From positions 97,333-161,332 of the forward strand of contig JAPPLW010000099.1 in the NCBI GenBank assembly GCA_028819345.1: DNA of 64,000 nt. Reading direction: 5' to 3'. The stretch is from a bacterium (GTDB lineage Bacteria > Actinomycetota > Acidimicrobiia > Spongiisociales > ZC4RG35). The first letter of the stretch is position 1. The number at the start of each line of letters is the position of its first letter. The notes below the pieces were generated by a model, which was not told the DNA's origin, made no database searches, and saw only the letters and a list, made by a program, of their open reading frames with translations. The translations under genes and the position numbers were made by a program. Below, piece after piece: positions 607-20,066 of this stretch.

Positions 607-1326
607 GTGACGCCCGCCTCCGTTTCAACCTCTCGACGCCGTCCCTGGCCGATGGAGTTCTACCGCTCGGCCGTCGGTAAGAAGTGGGTCATGGGCGTCA
701 CCGGCATCGCTCTCCTGGGGTTCGTGCTGGCCCACATGATCGGCAACCTCAAGGTCTATCTGGGTGAAGGGCAGTTGGATTCATACGCCCACTTCCTCAG
801 GGAGTTGCTTTACCCGCTACTCCCCAAGACCGTCACGCTTTGGCTGATGCGGACCGGCCTGGTGATCGCATTCCTCCTTCACATCCACGCAGCGGCCAGT
901 CTCACCTTGCTGAACCGACGGGCCAACACCGCCTACCGGGGTCCCCGCGACCTGGCGGTGGCGAGCTACGCCTCCCGAACCATGCGATGGAGCGGCGTGA
1001 TCGTGGCCGTCTTCCTGCTGTGGCATCTCGCCGATCTGACCTGGGGAGTGACTCCCATGGCGCCTGAGGGATGGACGGCCGGGGCGGTGGAGGCCAACCT
1101 GGCCGCCTCCCTGTCCCGGGGAGGGGTAGCAGTCCTGTACATCGTGGCCAATCTGCTGCTGGGCATCCACATCTACCACGGCGCATGGTCTCTCTTCCAA
1201 AGTCTGGGATTGGCCCATCCCTCCTACAACCGCTGGCGACGCTGGTTCGCGCAGGCCTTTTCCGCGGTGATCGTGATAGGCAACGTCAGCATACCGATCG
1301 CGGTCTGGACCGGGTGGGTGGGATGA
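607..1326 (+). CDS. sdhC: Succinate dehydrogenase/fumarate reductase cytochrome b subunit
   Basis: [13 protein letters not shown]...HMIGNLK, five TM helices with heme-ligand His residues, first gene of sdhCAB. Confidence 0.93.
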
Positions 1327-3248
1327 GTACGGTCCGGTTGGATGCGAAGACCCCACCAGGGCCCCTCGCCGACGCGTGGGACAATCACCGCTTCTCCCTC
1401 AAGCTGGTCAACCCCGCCAACAAGCGGCATTTCAAGATCATCGTGATCGGAACCGGCCTGGCGGGCGCCTCGGCCGCCGCCACCTTGGCCGAACTCGGCT
1501 ACCAGGTCGACGCCTTCACCTTTCATGACACCCCCCGCCGGGCCCACTCCATCGCCGCCCAGGGCGGCATCAACGCCGCCAAGAACTATCGAAACGACGG
1601 AGACTCGGTGGACCGGCTCTTCTACGACACCATCAAGGGCGGAGACTTCCGCTCCCGGGAAGCCAATGTCTACCGGTTGGCGCAACTCTCACTCAACATC
1701 ATCGACCAGGCCACGGCTCAGGGTGTCCCCTTCGCCCGGGAGTACGGCGGGCTCCTGGACAACCGCTCCTTCGGTGGCGCCCAGGTGGCTCGCACGTTCT
1801 ACTCCCGGGGTCAAACCGGCCAGCAACTGCTGCTGGGCGCCTACCAGGCCATGGCGCGACAGGTGGGACTGGGCACCGTCAAGCTGTGGGTGCGCACCGA
1901 GTTCATGGACGTGGTCCTGAAGGAAGGGCGGGCCGTCGGCGTTGTGGTAAGAGACCTCCTCACCGGGGAGATCACCTCTCACTCGGCTCATGCGGTGGTC
2001 CTGTGCACCGGCGGTTACTCCAATGTCTATTACTTATCCACCAATGCAATGACCTGCAACGCCACGGCGATATGGCGGGCACACCGTCGGGGAGCAGCCT
2101 TCGCCAATCCGTGCTTCACCCAGATCCATCCCACCTGCATACCGGCTGCCGAGGACTTCCAGTCCAAGTTGACCTTGATGTCTGAGTCCCTGCGTAACGA
2201 CGGACGGGTCTGGGTCCCCGCCTCCCCCGATGACGATCGGCCGCCCCGACAGATCCCGGAGAGTGATCGGGACTATTACTTGGAGAGGGTCTACCCGGCA
2301 TTCGGAAACCTGGTTCCCAGAGACGTCGCTTCCCGGGCCGCCAAGCGCATGGTCGACGCAGGCCATGGGGTGGGAGCAAGGAAAAACGGCGTTTACCTGG
2401 ACTTTCAGGATGCGATCGCCCGGCTCGGCCGCGAAGCCGTCGCCGCTCGCTACGACAACCTGATGGAGATGTACAACCGGATCACCGATGAGGATCCCTA
2501 TCAGGATCCGATGCGGATTTACCCCGCTCCCCACTACACCATGGGTGGGTTGTGGGTGGATTACAACCTGATGACCACCATCCCCGGGTTGTACGCCCTG
2601 GGTGAAGCCAACTTCTCGGACCACGGCGCCAACCGGTTGGGGGCCTCCGCCCTCATGCAGGGACTGGCCGACGGCTACTTCGTGCTCCCCTACACCATCG
2701 GCGACTATGTGGCGGAATTCCTGAATGAATCCCCGGTTCCTACGACCGACGAGGCATTTGCCCAAACCGAAGCCGAACTCCGGGAGCGGATCTCCGGATT
2801 GCTTTCGATGAATGGCAACCGCACGGTGGACGACTTTCACCGTCAACTGGGCAGGGTGGTATGGGACGAGTGCGGAATGTCCCGAAGCGAGGAGGGCTTG
2901 GACCGGGCCTTGACCTACCTGCCTGATCTCTACGAGGAGTTCCGGAGTGACGCCCGGGTCCCCGGTGATGGGGAAAGCCTCAACCAGACGCTCGAGAAAG
3001 CCGCCCGGCTGGAGGACTTCTTCGAGTTGGCGATGGCTATGTGCGTGGACGCCCGGCACCGGGAAGAGTCGTGCGGCGGACATTTCCGGGTGGAGCACCA
3101 GACTCCTCAAGGCGAAGCGGTCCGTGACGATGAGCAGTTCACGATGGTGTCGGCGTGGTTCTGGACAGGCGACCCCACCCGGCCCTTGTTGCAGGAAGAG
3201 CCACTGGCGTTCGAAAACGTGCAGCTAACCACCCGGAGCTACAAATGA
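1323..3248 (+). CDS. sdhA: Succinate dehydrogenase/fumarate reductase flavoprotein subunit
   Basis: GTGLAG FAD motif, [45 protein letters not shown]-like motif; ATG at 1323 overlaps the sdhC stop. Confidence 0.96.
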
Positions 3249-3997
3249 ACATCACCCTGAGGGCATGGCGCCAGGCAGGCCCGTCGGACGAAGGCGGATT
3301 CGAGACCTACCAGGTTTCCGACGTGTCCTCGGACATGTCGTTCCTGGAGATGCTGGACGTGTTGAACGAACGACTCACACTGGAGGGGCTGGAGCCCATC
3401 GCCTTCGACTCGGACTGCAGGGAAGGGATTTGCGGCGCCTGCGGGGTGATGATCAACGGTCGGGCTCATGGACCGCAGGCGGCCACAGCCACCTGCCAAC
3501 TCCACATGAGGAGCTTCGAAGACGGCGACACCATCACCGTCGAACCCTGGCGGGCGGCGGCCTTCGCAGTCATTCGCGATCTGGTGGTCGACCGATCCGC
3601 TTTCGACCGGATCATCGAAGCTGGCGGCTTCATCACGGTCGCCACCGGTTCCGCCCCGGAAGCCAACCTGACCCCGGTCCCCAAGGAGACGGCCGAGACC
3701 GCTTTCGACGCCGCGGCGTGCATCGGGTGCGGGGCATGTGTGGCGGCCTGTCCCAACTCCGCCGCACAGCTGTTCACCGCCGCCAAGGCCTCCCACCTCA
3801 GTCTCCTTCCCCAGGGTGGTGCGGAACGGTACGTCCGGACCGAGCGCATGGTGGACACCATGGAGCGGTTCTTCGGATCGTGCACCAACCACGGAGAATG
3901 CGAAGCCGCCTGCCCCAAACAGATTTCCATCGACTTCATAGCCATGATGAACCGCGACTACGTCAAGGCCAAGGTCAAGAACCGCGGAAACGCCTGA
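3245..3997 (+). CDS. sdhB: Succinate dehydrogenase/fumarate reductase Fe-S subunit
   Basis: [10 protein letters not shown] (2Fe-2S), [24 protein letters not shown]; ATGA overlap with sdhA. Confidence 0.96.
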
Positions 3998-4005
3998 CGA
4001 AGACC

Positions 4006-4914
4006 GTGACTGCTCAGGAAGCCATGTGGGAGATCCCCGAACCCTCCGCCACACGCCAGGCGGTGATGGGAGACGGCACCGAGATTGCGTTGCGCCGTCA
4101 TGGGAACCCGGATGGACCCAGGTTGGTTCTGACTCACGGCAACGGCCTGGCCATCGATCTCTACTACCCCTTCTGGTCTCTGCTGGCTGACGATTACGAC
4201 GTGATTGTCTACGACCTCAGAGACCATGGTTGGAACGAGGTCAGCCCTCTCGAAACGCACAACATGCCCACCTTCGTGGATGACCATGATCGCATAATGG
4301 AAGCCATCGACCAGCACTTCGGCGACAAGCCGAAGATTGGCGTATTCCATTCGATCTCGGCCTTGATCTCGCTGCTGTCGCCCACCAGGGGAAGCGGATT
4401 CGTCGGGCGCTTCTTGTTCGATCCCCCCCTCTGCAAGCCGGGGAGAAGTTACCAGCAGATGGAGGAGGCCGCCACCCGCACCGCTACGCTCACCCGGCGG
4501 CGCGCGGAGCGGTTTTCCACCCTGGAGGACTTCTCGTTTCTCCTTGGATTCGTTCCGTTATTCTCTCGCGTCGTCCCTGGCGTGCTCGACCTGATGGCCA
4601 GGACGACCCTCCGTGAAAGCGAAGGTCGGCAGGGGTACGAATTGAGGTGTCCCAAGGAATACGAGGCTCGGATCGTCGAGTACGCAGGCGTCTTCTCGGT
4701 GATGGTTGACTTCGACACCCTGGCGTCGCCCACCAAGGTCATGGGCGCAGATCCCACGCTTCCCTTCTCCTACCTCCCCACTCTCGATCTGAGTGACATC
4801 CTGACCGTCGACTACGACTTCCTACCCGAAGCCACCCACTTCCTTCAACTTGAAGAACCTGAGGAATGCGCCGCGGCGCTGCGGGAGTTCATCGACGACA
4901 TCCTGGAAGGCTGA
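4006..4914 (+). CDS. Alpha/beta hydrolase (Sup-PKS-associated type), paralog of 10037-10948
   Basis: LTHGNGLAIDLY oxyanion loop, YDLRDHG, GVFHSISA nucleophile elbow, EATHFLQLEEP catalytic His; start uncertain (CTG 3994, GTG 4006 or ATG 4024). Confidence 0.85.
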   Translation: MTAQEAMWEIPEPSATRQAVMGDGTEIALRRHGNPDGPRLVLTHGNGLAIDLYYPFWSLLADDYDVIVYDLRDHGWNEVSPLETHNMPTFVDDHDRIMEAIDQHFGDKPKIGVFHSISALISLLSPTRGSGFVGRFLFDPPLCKPGRSYQQMEEAATRTATLTRRRAERFSTLEDFSFLLGFVPLFSRVVPGVLDLMARTTLRESEGRQGYELRCPKEYEARIVEYAGVFSVMVDFDTLASPTKVMGADPTLPFSYLPTLDLSDILTVDYDFLPEATHFLQLEEPEECAAALREFIDDILEG

Positions 4915-4955
4915 CACCTCGCTCGATCAGCGGATCAGGGGAACCGGGACTTTTC

Positions 4956-7931
4956 TCAGGAACCCTCCACTCTCACGGTGATGATGTCCATCCCGTGATA
5001 CTTCTGGTGCCGGAAATCGGAGGCATAGTGGCGCAGGAGCCGAAAGGAGATCTCCCTCTCGTCCCATGTCTGAAGCTCGTCATCGAGATATGCCAACCGG
5101 TCTTGGAGGTTCTCTTCCTCCACAACCGTGACGAACTCCAGTTCAATGGCTCCCCCTTCGGGGTAGGCCAAGAGGATCAGCCGCGGCGTCTTGCCGTCCT
5201 GGTACCGGTTGGAAGGCGCCAACAGGCTGGCTAAGGCTTCTTCCCCCGCCGAACACAACCGCCGGGTTGAAGGAGCGGCCCAACCCCTTTGGCAGGCCAG
5301 GTCCTGAAGAAACCCGTCGATCAAGGAGAAAGACGATCCGTCCAGAGCCGTCCGGAGCCGTTTGGGCCGGCCACGGCTCAGCTTCAGGAACAGTGACAAT
5401 CCCACCGCGGTGACCGCGCCCAGGGTGAGGCCGTCACCCAGCAGCAGATCCCAAGGCTCCTCCAAAACACCCTCCAGAACGTTGCGCTGCAACATGCCGA
5501 CTCCCACCGCGTAGGACAGGCCCACCATCACGATGTTCTGCGGACTGAGACCGGCCTGGGAAACGGTGCGCAGACCCTCCATGATCACGGTCACGGTGGG
5601 AGGCCCGACCTCCATGCCCTCCAGAAACTCCTCCAACTCGATCAGGGCCGGTTCCACCAACGCGCTGTGAAACGCCCGCGTGGTATTGAGCCTTCTGGCC
5701 CGGACCCCCTCTGATTCAAAGTCCCTCAAGATGGCCTCGATCTCTTCTATCGGGCCGCTGACCACTTGGTGGGCGCCGTTGTCAGCAGATACGCTCAACC
5801 CCAAACCGCCTGACTCCCCGTTCCGCGCCTCGACCGCCGCCGCCACCCGCTCCGCGGATGCGAAGACCGCGGCCATTGCGCCCGGCTCTGTTCCCGACAA
5901 CAGCCTCCCTCGCGCCGCGGCTAACCGCATCCCGTCTTCCAGGCTGAACACCCCCGCGGCCTGCGACGCCGCCAACTCCCCGACGCTGTGCCCCATCACC
6001 ACGCTGGGGTGAATGCCGACACTCGACCAAAGCGCGGTCAAGGCGCACTCCAACGCATAGAGCGCAGGCTGCTCCCAAGCCGTGTCGCCCAGGTCTCCCG
6101 CCGCTCCCTCTCGACCGAACATGACGTCCAGCAGAGATGCGCCCGTCTCGGATTCGAACACCTCCTCGCAGCGGTCGAGAACCGCCCTTGCCACCGGCTC
6201 GGTCTCGTAGAGGTCCCGTCCCATACCCACCCACTGGCTTCCCTGCCCGGTATAGACAAACCCAACCTTGCCCGGGTTCAGCGCCTCGTTTCCCGCGCCG
6301 GCCTGCGAGAGTCCTCCCAACTGCTCCCGCAGGGAGTCGACGTCCCCGAACACAATGCCTGCCCTGTGGGCGAAATGACTCCGCCCGACACCCGCCGTCC
6401 AGGACATATCCGAAAGGACCGGGTCGAGGCCGGCGTCCCGGAGGTCAGCCTCGGCGGCCCGATCGTCCAGCCAAGCCAGGTAACGCTCGGCAAGTTCCCG
6501 GAAGGCGCGGTCCGACTTGGCGGACAACGGGAGAAGACGGGTCCGGCGGGGCCGGGAGATCCCCACAGTCCCGGGAGCGGCTGCCGGCAAGTGTTCTCCG
6601 AGTTCATCATCCTCGCTGGGGGGATACTCTTCCACCACGATGTGGGCGTTGGTGCCGGATATCCCGAACGAGTTCACGCCCGCCAGTCGAGGGCGCTTGG
6701 GGCCGGACGGCCAGTCCATCATGGTCGAGGTCACCTGAAGAGGCAGTCGTTCCCAGTCGATGCTGGGGCTTGGATTGCGGAAGTGGAGATGCTTGGGGAT
6801 CACCCCCTGGTTCACCACCAGGGCCGCCTTGATCAGCCCGGCGATTCCGGCAGCCGATTCCAGATGGCCGATGTTGGTTTTCACCGAACCGATGAGGAGG
6901 GGACGGTCGGCTTGGCGGCCGGGACCGAAGACGTTCCCCACGGCATTGATCTCGATGGGATCGCCCACGGCGGTTCCGGTCCCGTGCGCCTCCAGGTAAT
7001 CAATCTCGGAAGGCGTCACTCCCGCCTCGGAGATAGCGGTCTCCATCACCTGCTCCAGTGACGGCGTATTCGGGACGGTCAACCCGGTGCTGGCCCCGCC
7101 GTGGTTCACCGCCGCTCCGCGGATGACGGCCCAGATGCGGTCTCCATCGGCCTCGGCCTCCCTCAACCTCTTCAGGACGACTACCCCGCACCCCTCACCC
7201 CGCACATACCCGTTGGCGGAGGCATCGAATGCCTTGCACTGCCCATCGGGGGAAAGCATCATCGCATCCGCCCGCAACTCATAGATCCGAGTGTTCAAGA
7301 TGGCCTGGACCCCGCCCACAATGGCCAGATCGGCCTTGCCCTGCTGGAGGTCCGCCACCCCGTCATGCACCGCCACCAGGGACGAGGCGCAGGCGGCGTC
7401 GACGGCTTTCGCAGGCCCGACCAGACCTAGGACGAAAGAGACCCGTCCGCTGGCGCCGTTGAGGTTTGTGCCGCTCAGAGCGTACAGGGAACCGGCCGCC
7501 TCGGCGGGCTTGTCCGATTCAACAACCAGCATCCGGTACTCGTCATTGCTGATCCCCGTGTACACGCCCGTTCGGGTGCCTCTCAGCCTTTCCGGGTCGA
7601 TACAGGCATCCTCCAATGCCTGCCAGCCCACCTCCAGCATCATGCGTTGCTGCGGGTCCAGGAGTTGTGCTTCCACCGGGGAGATGCGGAAGAAGGCTGC
7701 GTCGAATTGCTCAATCCCGTCCACGAACGCGCCGAATCGGCATGCCTCGTTCCGGGCGGAGGGATCAGCGAAGAGATCACCCAGACGGTCTCCACCGGAA
7801 CCGGGAAGGCCCTCGGTCACGGTGTTCTTGCCCTCTAAGAGAAGTTGCCAGAAGGCGTCCAAGTCGTCCGCGCCGGGGAATTTGCAGGCCATTCCGACAA
7901 TGGCTATCGGCTCTGCGGCCTGTCCTCTCAT
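4956..7931 (-). CDS. Chimeric ORF: Sup-type type I PKS KS plus truncated AT, fused to a permease C-terminus with an RsbW/GHKL-like tail (probable deletion remnant)
   Basis: EPIAIVGMACKFPGA, DPQQR, VDAACASSL (Cys), EAHGTGT, KTNIGHLE; AT motifs GQGSQW, GHSVG, RAFHS; after PPTVTV the sequence switches to hydrophobic helices; no DH/KR/ACP/TE. Confidence 0.85.
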   Translation of the reverse strand: MRGQAAEPIAIVGMACKFPGADDLDAFWQLLLEGKNTVTEGLPGSGGDRLGDLFADPSARNEACRFGAFVDGIEQFDAAFFRISPVEAQLLDPQQRMMLEVGWQALEDACIDPERLRGTRTGVYTGISNDEYRMLVVESDKPAEAAGSLYALSGTNLNGASGRVSFVLGLVGPAKAVDAACASSLVAVHDGVADLQQGKADLAIVGGVQAILNTRIYELRADAMMLSPDGQCKAFDASANGYVRGEGCGVVVLKRLREAEADGDRIWAVIRGAAVNHGGASTGLTVPNTPSLEQVMETAISEAGVTPSEIDYLEAHGTGTAVGDPIEINAVGNVFGPGRQADRPLLIGSVKTNIGHLESAAGIAGLIKAALVVNQGVIPKHLHFRNPSPSIDWERLPLQVTSTMMDWPSGPKRPRLAGVNSFGISGTNAHIVVEEYPPSEDDELGEHLPAAAPGTVGISRPRRTRLLPLSAKSDRAFRELAERYLAWLDDRAAEADLRDAGLDPVLSDMSWTAGVGRSHFAHRAGIVFGDVDSLREQLGGLSQAGAGNEALNPGKVGFVYTGQGSQWVGMGRDLYETEPVARAVLDRCEEVFESETGASLLDVMFGREGAAGDLGDTAWEQPALYALECALTALWSSVGIHPSVVMGHSVGELAASQAAGVFSLEDGMRLAAARGRLLSGTEPGAMAAVFASAERVAAAVEARNGESGGLGLSVSADNGAHQVVSGPIEEIEAILRDFESEGVRARRLNTTRAFHSALVEPALIELEEFLEGMEVGPPTVTVIMEGLRTVSQAGLSPQNIVMVGLSYAVGVGMLQRNVLEGVLEEPWDLLLGDGLTLGAVTAVGLSLFLKLSRGRPKRLRTALDGSSFSLIDGFLQDLACQRGWAAPSTRRLCSAGEEALASLLAPSNRYQDGKTPRLILLAYPEGGAIELEFVTVVEEENLQDRLAYLDDELQTWDEREISFRLLRHYASDFRHQKYHGMDIITVRVEGS

Positions 7932-8057: not shown

Positions 8058-9041
8058 TTACCGAGTGATGAGGGCGCGGAGTTCGGGCAGGACTTCTTTC
8101 TCCACTATTTCCAGGGTGCGGTCGGGGTTGACGGAGGCGATCTGGATGGCCACGTAGTCGGCGCCTATCTCGGTGACCAGCGGCCGGTAGACCTCGATCA
8201 GGTCCTCGGTGGTGGCGGCGAGCGTGTACTTGCCGAGAATCTCCGCTCGGTCCATGGAGTCGGCTCGCTCCCTCAGCACCATGGGGTCGACGGCCTGCAG
8301 TCGCCCGGGCGCGCGCAGGCCTCGCATGCTGCCCAGGGCTTCCCATGCCTCCGACTCGTCCCCGGCCAGAACACACCAGCGGGTGGTCATCAAAGTTCCC
8401 GGACGTCCCCACTTCTCTGCCGAGGCGCGAAAGGGTCCGATCACCCTCTCTATAGTGTCCGCCGGGTCCTTGACACTGGTGATCAGCCCATCGGACCGCC
8501 TGCCGGCAAACGTAGCCGACTGCGGACCTCCGGCAGCCATCCAGATGGGTGTCTTGCGGGGCGGGGGGCTGTACAGCTTGGCCTTGTCGGTTGTGTACCA
8601 GTCGCCTGAGAAGTCAAGCTTCTCCCCCGCCAACAAACGGTGCATGATCTCCAGGGCCTCCCGCATTCTCCTGATGCGTTCCCGGTAGTCACCGAAGCGG
8701 AAGCCCAAGGGCCCCTCGTTGATGTTCTCACCGGTACCCACACCCAACACGAACTTCCCTCCGGACAGTCGGTCCACAGTCGCCGCCGCCTGTGCCACCA
8801 GGGCGGGGTGATAGTGATAGAGAGGACAGGTCACGGAAGTGGCCAGTTCGGCGTCGGTTCGGGCCGCCACCGCCCCCAGCCAGGACCAGACGAAACCCGA
8901 AGCGCAATTGTCGTCGACCCAGGGATGGAAGTGGTCGGACCCCAGAATCATGTCAAAACCGGCTTCCTCCGCCCGCACCGCCTGGTCGACCAGGACCTCG
9001 GGCTGATAGGACTCATGGCTGCACAACCAGGCAAACTTCAA
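8058..9041 (-). CDS. F420-dependent LLM-class oxidoreductase (G6PDH-like family)
   Basis: SHESYQPEVL, SDHFHPW, SVTCP...HPALVAQAAAT, LGVGTGENINEGPLG. Confidence 0.9.
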   Translation of the reverse strand: MKFAWLCSHESYQPEVLVDQAVRAEEAGFDMILGSDHFHPWVDDNCASGFVWSWLGAVAARTDAELATSVTCPLYHYHPALVAQAAATVDRLSGGKFVLGVGTGENINEGPLGFRFGDYRERIRRMREALEIMHRLLAGEKLDFSGDWYTTDKAKLYSPPPRKTPIWMAAGGPQSATFAGRRSDGLITSVKDPADTIERVIGPFRASAEKWGRPGTLMTTRWCVLAGDESEAWEALGSMRGLRAPGRLQAVDPMVLRERADSMDRAEILGKYTLAATTEDLIEVYRPLVTEIGADYVAIQIASVNPDRTLEIVEKEVLPELRALITR

Positions 9042-10036: not shown

Positions 10037-10948
10037 TTGACCCCCCACACGCAAACAGCGTGGGAGGTACCTGAACCTCGTTCCGTTCGTACCGCCCGGA
10101 TGGGCGATGGCACGAACATCGTCCTCCGGCGGCACGGGAACCCCGGGGAACCCCGGTTGGTGGTGTGCCATGGCAACGGATTGGCCTCCGACCTGTACTA
10201 CCCGTTCTGGTCTCTGCTGACCGGAGAATGCGACCTCATCGTCTATGACCTCAGGAATCATGGTTGGAATGAGGTCACAGCCATCGGCAACCACAACATA
10301 CCGTCTCTTGTCAAGGATCATGACCTCATCATGGAGACCATTGACAGCTACTTCGGGTACAAGCCCAAGGTGGGAGCCTTCCACTCCGTCTCGGCGCTGA
10401 TCTCACTCCTCTCTCCCACCAAGGGGAGCGCCTTCGCCGGGCGCATCCTGTTTGACGCTCCGCTGTGCAGACCCGGCCAGACCACTGAGGAAATGGAGGC
10501 AGCCACCGCCCGCAACGCGGCGGCCGCCAGAAAACGCAGAGAGAGCTTCGCCAACTGGGAAGACTTCTCACATCGCCTTCGATCCGTTCCGGCTCTCTCC
10601 CGGGTAGTTCCAGGCGTCTTCGACCTGATGGCGAAGACAACCCTCCGCAAGGACCCGGGCAGTGATCATTATGAACTGCGCTGCCCACGTGAATACGAGG
10701 CGCGCCTTGCCGAATACGGGGAGATCTACTCAGGGATGGTCGACCTGGGGGACTTGGCGTCACCGACGAAAGTGCTCGGCGCCGACCCGTCCATACCTTT
10801 CTCCTACCTGCCCTCCCTCGGCCTGACTGACATTGTTACGGTCGATTTCGACTTCCTCCCCGATTCAACCCACCTCCTTCAACTGGAGAAACCTGAGGCG
10901 TGCGCCGCGGCCGTACGGGACTTTCTGAACACAATCCATGATGGTTGA
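10037..10948 (+). CDS. Alpha/beta hydrolase (Sup-PKS-associated type), paralog of 4006-4914
   Basis: CHGNGLASDLY, YDLRNHG, GAFHSVSA, DSTHLLQLEKP; colinear with the 4006-4914 protein. Confidence 0.87.
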   Translation: MTPHTQTAWEVPEPRSVRTARMGDGTNIVLRRHGNPGEPRLVVCHGNGLASDLYYPFWSLLTGECDLIVYDLRNHGWNEVTAIGNHNIPSLVKDHDLIMETIDSYFGYKPKVGAFHSVSALISLLSPTKGSAFAGRILFDAPLCRPGQTTEEMEAATARNAAAARKRRESFANWEDFSHRLRSVPALSRVVPGVFDLMAKTTLRKDPGSDHYELRCPREYEARLAEYGEIYSGMVDLGDLASPTKVLGADPSIPFSYLPSLGLTDIVTVDFDFLPDSTHLLQLEKPEACAAAVRDFLNTIHDG

Positions 10949-17940: not shown

Positions 17941-19734
17941 ATGCCCGACCACAAGACCGACAAACCATCCTCCGGCGGACCAGTCCCCGGGCCGCGGACG
18001 AGCCGTCCGGTCATCTCCGGGACCCGCGGGATAATCTCGAGCGGCCACTACCTGACGTCGATGGCGGGGATGCGCATGATGGTATCGGGAGGGAACGCCT
18101 TCGACGCGGTGGCGGCAGGGGTCTTCGCGGGTGTGGTGGTCGAGCCGACCGCCGCCTGTTCCCTCGCCGCCGAGAGCGTCTTCATGCTCTACGACGCCCG
18201 TTCGGGGGACCTCAAGTCGCTTAGCGGCCAAGGCGTGGCCCCGGCCAAGGCGACGCTCGAGTTCTACCGCTCAAATGGACTTGACGACGTCCCCACCGGC
18301 CCCGGTCCCCTGGCGCCCCTGTCGTTCACCGTGCCCGGCGTCGTGCACGCCACCATCTCGATGCTCGAGAGGTACGGAACCAAGAGCCTCAGCGAGGTGA
18401 TCAGTCCGGCAATCCAATACGCCGAGGAGGGGATACCCCACTACCGGCAGATGATCGACTTCCTGGGACTGGAACCCACCATCCGCCAGTTCCGGCTCTT
18501 CCCCCCCGGCGGGATGGAGGTCTTCTATGACGACGCAAAGCTGCCGCAGGAGGGGTCGCTCTTCTACCAGCCCGGCCTGGCCGGGACATTGAGATCGTTG
18601 GCGGCCGCCGAGGCGTCGTCAGGGGGATCCCGGTCGGACGGACTGCGCGCCGGGATCGACGAGTTCTACCGCGGGAGAGTCGCCAGGCTGATCGCCGATG
18701 CATCGGAGAGCGTCGGCGGAGTCCTCGGGTACGAGGACCTCGGCGCCTACCGGTCGCAGTTCGAAGAGCCGCTCCGCACCACCTTCTCGGGCTATGAAAT
18801 CTGCGGCCAGAGGACCTGGTCGCAGGCCGGCGTTCTCCTCCAGACGCTGAACATGCTCGACCACTTCGACCTACGAGCCATGGGCCACAACACCCCGGCC
18901 TACATCCACACCGTCATCGAGGCCCTGAAGCTTTCCATGGCGGACCGCCAGACCTTTTACGGAGATCCCGACTTCGCCGACGTGCCGGTCTCCAGACTCC
19001 TGTCCAAGGAGTACGGCGAGGCTCGGGCCTCCATGATCGACCCCGGCCGGGCGGTCCCCGAGTTGCCGCCTCCGGGGGACCCCTGGGGTGGGGTGGTCCC
19101 TCCCGAGAGGCTGGGCGCCCCTGCAGGGGGATCCGGCGGCAAACTCGGTCAGGCGGGAGGCACCACCCACGTCGCCGCGATCGACCGGGCCGGAAACATG
19201 GCGTGCGCCACGCCCAGCGGCGGCTCTTTCGAGAAATCGGTGTTCTTTCCGGAGTTGGGATGCGCCATCAGCACCCGCTCCGAGGTGTTCAACCTGTCGG
19301 CGGGGCACCCCAACGTCATCGAGCCGGGTAAGCGGCCCAGGACCACGCTGGTCAATTACATCGCCGTCAAGGATGGCATACCACAGATGACCTTCGGTTG
19401 TCCGGGCGGAGACCACCAGACCCAGGCCAACCTCCAGCTGATGCTGAACACGTTCATCTTCGGCATGAACCCCCAGGAGGCCATCGAGGCGCCACGGTTC
19501 GCCACCGACAGCGTCCCCGACTCCTTCTACCCCCACAACTACTACCCCGGCCAGCTTTCTCTGGAGGCGGGAATTCCAAGCGGGACGGCCGAGACCCTGG
19601 GGCGGAGGGGCCACAGAGTAGTGAGAGCGGAGGTCTGCGGGGTGGGCGCCACCGTCACCCACCGCGATCCGGAGTCCGGCGTTCTCAGCACCGGGGGAGA
19701 CCCCAGGCGGCCCTGCTACGCGTTGAGTTGGTAG
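17941..19734 (+). CDS. ggt: Gamma-glutamyltransferase family protein (Ntn hydrolase)
   Basis: GGNAFDA, TVPG, ADRQTFYGDP, catalytic TTHVAAID, PGKRPRTTL, GCPGGDHQTQ, GDPRR. Confidence 0.88.
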   Translation: MPDHKTDKPSSGGPVPGPRTSRPVISGTRGIISSGHYLTSMAGMRMMVSGGNAFDAVAAGVFAGVVVEPTAACSLAAESVFMLYDARSGDLKSLSGQGVAPAKATLEFYRSNGLDDVPTGPGPLAPLSFTVPGVVHATISMLERYGTKSLSEVISPAIQYAEEGIPHYRQMIDFLGLEPTIRQFRLFPPGGMEVFYDDAKLPQEGSLFYQPGLAGTLRSLAAAEASSGGSRSDGLRAGIDEFYRGRVARLIADASESVGGVLGYEDLGAYRSQFEEPLRTTFSGYEICGQRTWSQAGVLLQTLNMLDHFDLRAMGHNTPAYIHTVIEALKLSMADRQTFYGDPDFADVPVSRLLSKEYGEARASMIDPGRAVPELPPPGDPWGGVVPPERLGAPAGGSGGKLGQAGGTTHVAAIDRAGNMACATPSGGSFEKSVFFPELGCAISTRSEVFNLSAGHPNVIEPGKRPRTTLVNYIAVKDGIPQMTFGCPGGDHQTQANLQLMLNTFIFGMNPQEAIEAPRFATDSVPDSFYPHNYYPGQLSLEAGIPSGTAETLGRRGHRVVRAEVCGVGATVTHRDPESGVLSTGGDPRRPCYALSW

Positions 19735-19823
19735 ACGTCAGGGCGCACCGACAAGGGACGATGCGTATGGCTGTCCCGCCGCCCTCCACTCAGCCGCCGC
19801 GACCACCATCCGGTCCGATAGGA

Positions 19824-20066
19824 TCAGTTCCCCAGTTTCGCTCGGATCAGCGCGGCCGCCTCGCCCACGGTGGTGATCTCTTCGGCTTCCTCGTCCGGGA
19901 TTTCCACGCCGAACTCGTCCTCCAGCGCCATTAACAGCTCCACAACGCCGAGCGAATCGACATCCAGGTCCTCCTCGAAATTGGCGTCAGGGTGCAGCTT
20001 GTCCTCTTCGAGATCCAATTCCTCCACCAGAATCTTCTTTAGCCTGACGTCGATGTCCGCGCTCAT
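19824..20066 (-). CDS. acpP: Acyl carrier protein
   Basis: [30 protein letters not shown] with the phosphopantetheine Ser; last gene of the fab cluster. Confidence 0.95.

Follow-up and report, generated by a model that had tools for sequence, protein, structure and literature searches.

Within a stretch of 64,000 nucleotides (hereafter the window; contig JAPPLW010000099.1 of assembly GCA_028819345.1, positions 97,333 to 161,332), we examined a single open reading frame (ORF) at 4956..7931 (-), which encodes 991 amino acids plus a stop codon and joins the ketosynthase (KS) and acyltransferase (AT) domains of a type I polyketide synthase (PKS) to the tail of a permease. An earlier reading of the letters, made without database searches (the sequence-only reading), had attributed this ORF to a multi-kb in-frame deletion and offered three outcomes, namely a decaying cluster, an assembly chimera or a new functional fusion protein; the single frame and all the motifs quoted for it were found in the translation. 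Our analysis favors the decaying cluster: a real, strain-private deletion is likely to have taken place at this locus, and the ORF is probably what a recent event of this kind, ~10-13 kb in size, left behind as a non-functional chimera.

Anatomy of the chimeric reading frame

The frame is open from its native start to its native stop and begins with a complete KS (residues 7-384, 6780..7913 (-)), matched in Pfam by ketoacyl-synt (PF00109, residues 7-259, E 1e-80) and Ketoacyl-synt_C (PF02801, residues 268-384), with the Cys-His-His active site present in the translation (DAACASS, HGTGT and NIGHLE). It is followed by a KS-AT linker (residues 387-540, 6312..6773 (-); PF16197, PF22621 and PF22336) and by an AT (residues 558-783, 5583..6260 (-)) that keeps its GHSVG and RAFHS motifs and has lost the last third of its fold. 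This truncation is real, as the Pfam family Acyl_transf_1 (PF00698) is matched over profile positions 2-219 of 319 and a second library, NCBIfam, likewise records FabD over positions 2-228 of 290, in agreement with the earlier observation that the AT stops early. In the translation, the AT ends at ...VGPPTVTV and passes directly into IMEGLRTVSQAG, the junction peptide reading ...PPTVTVIMEGLR... A Pfam search of the 991-aa ORF found no PP-binding domain, i.e., no acyl carrier protein (ACP).

Beyond the junction, residues 781-850 match the last 70 of the 407 positions (337-407) of the NCBIfam model of the xanthine permease pbuX, and the remnant of the NCS2 permease core (5376..5582 (-), delimited by the pbuX profile, paralog alignment and a structure model) comprises the end of one transmembrane (TM) helix and the last two TM helices. 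Residues 784-991 matched no Pfam family at E up to 1. This 208-aa tail aligns, at 43% and 40% identity, with the last 207 aa of two paralogs encoded elsewhere in this genome, frames of 580 and 597 aa that carry Xan_ur_permease over their first ~400 residues; in the alignment the homology begins at EGLR, straight after ...VTVIM. The profile of this permease family also matched UapA (E 6e-38), UraA (E 3e-23) and SLC23A1, over the transporter core only. These matches bear out the proposal that the fusion partner is a permease.

The missing segment, its break points and recurrent loss of the cluster

The whole chimeric protein was searched against 40 relatives, a count into which the unpublished G027 and G038 enter for this search only, and no single match spanned both halves in any of them. 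In three congeners (G013, G010 and G014) the KS-AT (86-89% identical) and the tail (80-92%, within a 578-aa frame) share a strand and are separated by several kb, in G015 they lie on separate contigs, and in G006 the best tail match (53%) is far from the PKS.

A BLASTN comparison of the window with the loci of the three congeners showed that both flanks are collinear with them at 87-93% nucleotide identity. Thus, window 9981-5582 corresponds to positions 1064-5464 of the G013 locus (L019) at 92.0%, window 5597-3797 corresponds to positions 18198-20000 at 92.6%, and the same pattern of two clean blocks was obtained with G010 and G014. The DNA between the break points amounts to 12,749 bp in G013, 10,346 bp in G010 and 10,339 bp in G014, in line with the multi-kb in-frame deletion that had been proposed. 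In G013 this segment holds the end of the AT, the dehydratase (DH), methyltransferase (MT), enoylreductase (ER), ketoreductase (KR), ACP, KS and AT domains (DH-MT-ER-KR-ACP-KS-AT), a phosphopantetheinyl transferase (PPTase), a protein with S-layer homology (SLH) and leucine-rich-repeat (LRR) regions, and residues 1-368 of the permease. The G010 synthase occupies a single 3,378-aa frame (KS-AT-DH-MT-ER-KR-ACP-KS-AT), followed by the PPTase and then by the permease. The predicted lost content, i.e., the rest of the PKS, accessory genes and the 5' part of the permease, was thereby recovered, the accessory gene being the PPTase and the permease part its 5' two thirds; both the ACP and the PPTase belong to the missing segment in the congeners. 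None of the assembly's 120 contigs carries the segment, the only matches on them being paralogs at 63-71%.

The intact loci differ among themselves in several details. G013 alone has the SLH and LRR (internalin-like) gene between the PPTase and the permease (L019 14714-16825), and owing to this extra gene its segment is 2.4 kb larger than those of G010 and G014. While G010 and G006 have the synthase as one frame of ~3,400 aa, in G013 and G014 it is split, with identical frame lengths in the two, into a 921-aa KS-AT frame and a frame of ~2,540 aa that overlap by 59 nt (L019 3049-5814 and 5756-13375 in G013), the cause being either a frameshift common to the two or a natural split right behind the AT. 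The C-terminal AT of the G013 synthase (residues 2249-2368 of the frame at L019 5756-13375) matches Pfam positions 2-120 of 319 only, with ~170 residues following, and may be a degenerate or docking AT.

We compared the window base by base with the G013, G010 and G014 loci around the break point (5582..5597 (-)). The window is collinear with the AT genes as far as ...ACCGTGACCGTGATCA (...GTGATCA), after which the relatives encode SNLTG, and from TCATGGA on it lines up with the permease genes. The exact bases common to both parents are only three, TCA at 5582-5584, and the permease side matches 12 of the 16 bases over 5582-5597. The sequence-only reading had placed the switch at a direct repeat, CACGGT-CACGGT, and this repeat does lie at 5586-5597 (ACCGTG ACCGTG on the other strand). 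However, the same 12 bases are present in the intact AT genes of all three congeners, and so the repeat is not a signature of the junction: it is native to the AT gene and was not created by the event, and the crossover lies beside it, at 5582-5584. The join is in frame and has the form of a simple deletion on one strand, within a contig longer than 161 kb.

Loss of the cluster recurs at this locus within the genus. Among 16 congeners, six are without the KS-AT, and an empty site was found in all five of these six that were examined (G005 being left out), with 72-495 nt from the flank bearing the LLM-class oxidoreductase gene to the far flank. One of them, G008, still has a 241-nt piece of the KS (C35:92002-92247; 81-85% identical), interrupted by an in-frame TGA, in the space that separates the LLM gene from the far flank; this piece is what an independent loss of the cluster left behind.

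In the window itself, the upstream flank is an F420-dependent LLM-class oxidoreductase (8058..9041 (-), TIGR03557) and the downstream flank a convergent alpha/beta hydrolase (4051..4914 (+)), both syntenic with the congeners. We also observed that two alpha/beta-hydrolase paralogs, at window 4065-4873 and 10100-10923, bracket the locus beyond each end of the variable segment, with ~70-72% nucleotide identity to each other's G013 counterparts.

Deletion, artifact or working protein

We propose that the ancestral locus would have comprised the LLM oxidoreductase, a large type I PKS of KS-AT-DH-MT-ER-KR-ACP-KS-AT architecture (about 3,400 aa), the PPTase, possibly the SLH/LRR protein, the NCS2 permease with its RsbW-like tail and the hydrolase. 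A single event of illegitimate recombination or replication slippage, with one end in the last third of the first AT and the other in the region of the 12th-13th TM helices of the permease, using the 3-bp exact (12/16 imperfect) microhomology, may then have removed about 10.3-12.7 kb. The join would have fallen in frame by chance (one in three), leaving the promoter and start codon of the PKS to drive the 991-aa chimera, which may well be transcribed, since the native upstream region and start are kept. Judging from its domain content, the chimera would be unable to make a polyketide, because it is without an ACP, reductive and MT domains, a complete AT core and the cluster PPTase, and unable to transport, because only about 70 of the 407 core positions (about one sixth) are left. 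The deletion appears to be young: the nearest intact alleles show 100% and 98% identity, which makes a comparison of nonsynonymous and synonymous substitution rates on the two halves pointless, and since the chimera is identical in sequence to intact alleles, selection would have had no time to act. The chimera is thus probably a very young pseudogene and one stage in a recurring, genus-level loss of the cluster.

We then turned to public sequences. The stretch is wholly or partly present in 20 rows from 10 studies, mostly labelled sponge metagenome and with no RNA data set listed among them, and we compared Logan contigs from four sponge-metagenome runs of four studies (X1, X3, X7 and X9) with the window over 4300-6900; these data are assembled contigs rather than reads, and rare variants are lost from contigs. 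The best matching run has 0.80 of the sampled words and several differences from the window, and is therefore probably not the source sample. Several of the results weigh against a deletion in real cells. In none of the four runs did a listed contig bridge the junction. Contigs on the permease side stop matching at 5597 and run on for 62 (X1), 54 (X3), 46 (X7) and 1,071 (X9) bases, the loose end in X3 being intact G013 permease sequence in 28 of 30 bases, and contigs on the AT side stop at 5582, the one in X1 differing at 1 of 371 bases and running on for 245 bases. In all runs the depth of bin 5518-5604 (37.7, 8.13, 5.97 and 175.8) equals the prorated depth of the two non-bridging contigs. 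The junction 28-mer had 0 matches in metagenome_contigs and 0 in genome_contigs (the window's own record left out), a search of 5.8 billion proteins returned no fused protein among 63 matches to the junction region, and the fusion was absent from 10 metagenome loci. Independent support for the junction was thus not found. The anatomy of the ORF, the missing segment, the break point, the uniqueness of the fusion and the recurrent loss within the genus are observed, whereas the presence of the junction in real cells, the deletion mechanism and, from domain content, the lack of function are inferred.

The protein matches were otherwise informative on the parent genes. Each of the 63 covers one half only, and never more than 57% of the junction region. 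A partial PKS deposited on a 3,275-bp contig of a metagenome-assembled genome (MAG; P0004) is identical to residues 188-783 of the chimera in 596 of 596 positions, and past ...PPTVTVI it continues with SNVTG...YW...EIGPHAVLGP, an intact AT and then DH domains, the very continuation that the sequence-only reading had expected of a type I AT. A 577-aa permease (P0002) is identical to the tail in 208 of 213 positions. Candidates for natural fusions were rejected on inspection: apparent full-length matches (query 1-991) in L066, L067, L074 and L050 are adjacent genes, as tblastn locates the tail of the permease immediately ahead of the KS, in a different frame, and L105, whose match starts 21 residues short of the junction, is a fragment of an ordinary permease. 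Misassembly mediated by a repeat between the two KS domains was likewise rejected, the KS domains being 66% identical and neither break point lying within them.

The main competitor of a real deletion, possible though unlikely in our estimate, is that the junction is an artifact, either a hybrid molecule formed by template switching at the microhomology during library preparation or amplification, or a merge introduced after assembly, in which case the real genome would hold an intact cluster whose 10-13 kb were lost from the bin. The absence of a bridging contig from four runs of four studies, in which near-identical sequence continues as intact genes on both sides, speaks for this explanation, as do the uniqueness of the 28-mer and the deposited, identical-sequence intact AT-DH on a contig whose 3,275 bp are typical of a fragmented PKS region; a short orphan contig is, moreover, easily missed in binning. 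Yet three exact shared bases are far below any assembler's word size, so that a word-based assembler could not have made the join without reads carrying it, and there is no repeat to collapse. The join is, furthermore, a simple same-strand deletion, flanked by kilobases of synteny and embedded in a contig that exceeds 161 kb; a few chimeric reads would not normally determine the consensus, none of the 120 contigs holds the missing DNA, and natural deletions of the same locus are documented in five congeners.

That the deletion is real and its product a working protein, i.e., a KS tethered to the membrane by the last two permease helices and bearing an RsbW-like, partner-binding domain in a new role, appears highly improbable. 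Such a chimera would be a freshly born gene encoding a membrane-localized condensing or acyl-binding protein, an outcome to which we give very little credence. Its frame is open from native start to native stop, the KS motifs are intact, the upstream region is as in the relatives and the tail domain is predicted to fold well alone. Against this, the chimera is a single occurrence with no conserved counterpart in the 40 relatives, the 63 protein matches or the 10 metagenome loci, none of the 150 listed representatives of the tail family exceeds 650 aa, the AT core is incomplete and no ACP is present, identity to the intact alleles leaves no time for selection, and an in-frame join is expected in one of three random deletions. 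The reverse scenario, in which the fused form is ancestral and the congeners gained 10-13 kb by insertion, has almost no probability left. It could draw on the KS-AT being closer to other phyla (70-73%) than to Acidimicrobiia (58-59%), with SdhA showing the reverse, a pattern pointing to horizontal movement of the cluster; but an insertion would need to supply precisely the missing parts of both the AT and the permease, and both genes are continuous and full-length in the relatives and in the identical-sequence alleles, so that this scenario is effectively refuted. Of the three outcomes originally offered, the decaying cluster thus remains the favored one, the assembly chimera is a less likely alternative and the functional fusion is disfavored.

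The permease domain, Sup clusters and cluster loss in sponge symbionts

The last part of the chimera (4959..5363 (-)) is a cytoplasmic C-terminal permease domain for which the sequence-only reading had suggested an RsbW/GHKL-like identity. A profile search of PDB sequences gave no match for this ~140-aa domain, and HATPase_c_2 was not matched by the tail in Pfam (E up to 1). An AlphaFold2 model of the tail was built with 46 homologues; it shows helices at 2-10, 14-32 and 44-69, in the part left from the permease core, and reaches a pLDDT of 92-96 in the domain core. In a Foldseek search with this model, each of the first 13 listed PDB matches was a SpoIIAB, UsfX, RsbW or SigF anti-sigma chain, the top matches to SpoIIAB, UsfX and RsbW having E-values of 1.5e-6 to 5e-5, target TM-scores of 0.67-0.85 and a sequence identity of 8-16%. 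The ESM Atlas added a weak language-model lead to HATPase_c_2 (a 15% share of one cluster). The suggested identity is therefore supported by the predicted fold and not by a sequence match, and the model supports an RsbW/SpoIIAB-like (GHKL) fold at the level of the fold only. At the level of its consensus sequence, the tail family shows no obvious N-box Asn or Gly-rich boxes, and the domain may bind rather than phosphorylate.

The combination of a permease with this C-terminal domain is common, with 553 representatives at E 1e-3 or better, the full-length ones measuring 540-650 aa with the tail at about residues 370-580. It constitutes a large NCS2/Xan_ur subfamily whose ~140-aa cytoplasmic domain is without a Pfam model, exemplified by L002 394-2133, L003 334-2124, L019 17106-18839 and window 4959-5363 (-). 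The full-length paralogs and orthologs resemble the NCS2/NAT transporters UapA, UraA and PbuX in that they match Xan_ur_permease, the pbuX/ncs2 models, UapA and UraA, and they retain the whole 14-TM core, whereas that core is incomplete in the window; UapA and UraA, for their part, are without the extra ~140-aa cytoplasmic domain. The predicted fold of the tail (Bergerat-type alpha/beta) finds its best match in SpoIIAB, RsbW and UsfX, but with the low identity given above and, unlike them, the domain here is fused to a transporter rather than standing alone. A further parallel is offered by SulP transporters with a C-terminal STAS domain, which are likewise 7+7-fold secondary transporters bearing a cytoplasmic domain from a partner-switching system, though here the appended domain would resemble the kinase/anti-sigma partner and not the STAS antagonist. 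In a fosmid table from the literature, a SupE-like permease has ORFs labelled 'anti-anti-sigma' on either side (PMC3908369). In the genome studied here no STAS gene adjoins the permease loci, a standalone STAS gene occurs once, on C97, and there are three SulP-STAS frames elsewhere. As far as the structure model goes, an RsbW-like domain on cluster-linked permeases hints at partner-switching control of transport.

Sup stands for 'sponge symbiont ubiquitous', with supA being the PKS gene, and it was to this type of PKS that the sequence-only reading had assigned the KS. The literature describes the sup genes as type I PKS genes of small size, dominant in the metagenomes of high-microbial-abundance sponges, and their enzymes have been proposed to make mid-chain methyl-branched fatty acids (PMC4245539; PMC3908369); SupE of clone pAPKS18 appears as a permease in Table 1 of one of these papers (PMC3908369). 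Our data agree with this assignment in habitat, the stretch being found in sponge metagenomes. In the congeners, though not in the window, architecture and linkage may fit as well: the synthase is a small, fatty acid synthase-like type I PKS that combines an MT with DH, ER and KR (G013 and G010), and a PPTase and an NCS2 permease are linked to the PKS, the permease being likened to SupE by description and not by sequence. They depart from it in that the window holds just the KS and two thirds of the AT, and in that the congener enzyme has a second KS-AT past the ACP, while Sup enzymes are called monomodular (PMC4245539). Sup membership is thus likely on the strength of architecture, habitat and the linked permease, and not of SupA or SupE sequences.

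Linkage of permease and PKS in the opposite gene order was found in three Acidimicrobiia records and one Dehalococcoidia record. The KS-AT (window 5583-7931; loci L027-L074) is 70-73% identical to MAGs of Latescibacterota, Dehalococcoidia, Arenicellales and Bryobacterales, and 58-59% identical to Acidimicrobiia records. The SdhA of the window, by comparison, is 68% identical to three Acidimicrobiia records and 31-33% identical to a Dehalococcoidia and a Latescibacterota record. The host is probably a sponge-associated bacterium of the Acidimicrobiia, as the SdhA identity fits this class, and the opposite trends of the two genes suggest a cross-phylum transfer of the cluster among sponge symbionts.

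The ORF is most likely an ordinary deletion remnant, or less likely an artifact, of a known kind of cluster and not a new kind of enzyme, and neither annotation nor mining should treat it as a PKS or a new fusion architecture. Provided that the junction is real, it offers a cleanly dated snapshot of sponge symbionts losing a Sup-type lipid/polyketide cluster, with one genus holding three states of the locus: intact alleles of identical sequence, a half-deleted allele and emptied sites, one of them with a scrap of the KS. In that case the cluster would be dispensable and often shed, which would bear on the claimed essentiality of Sup products for the symbiosis.

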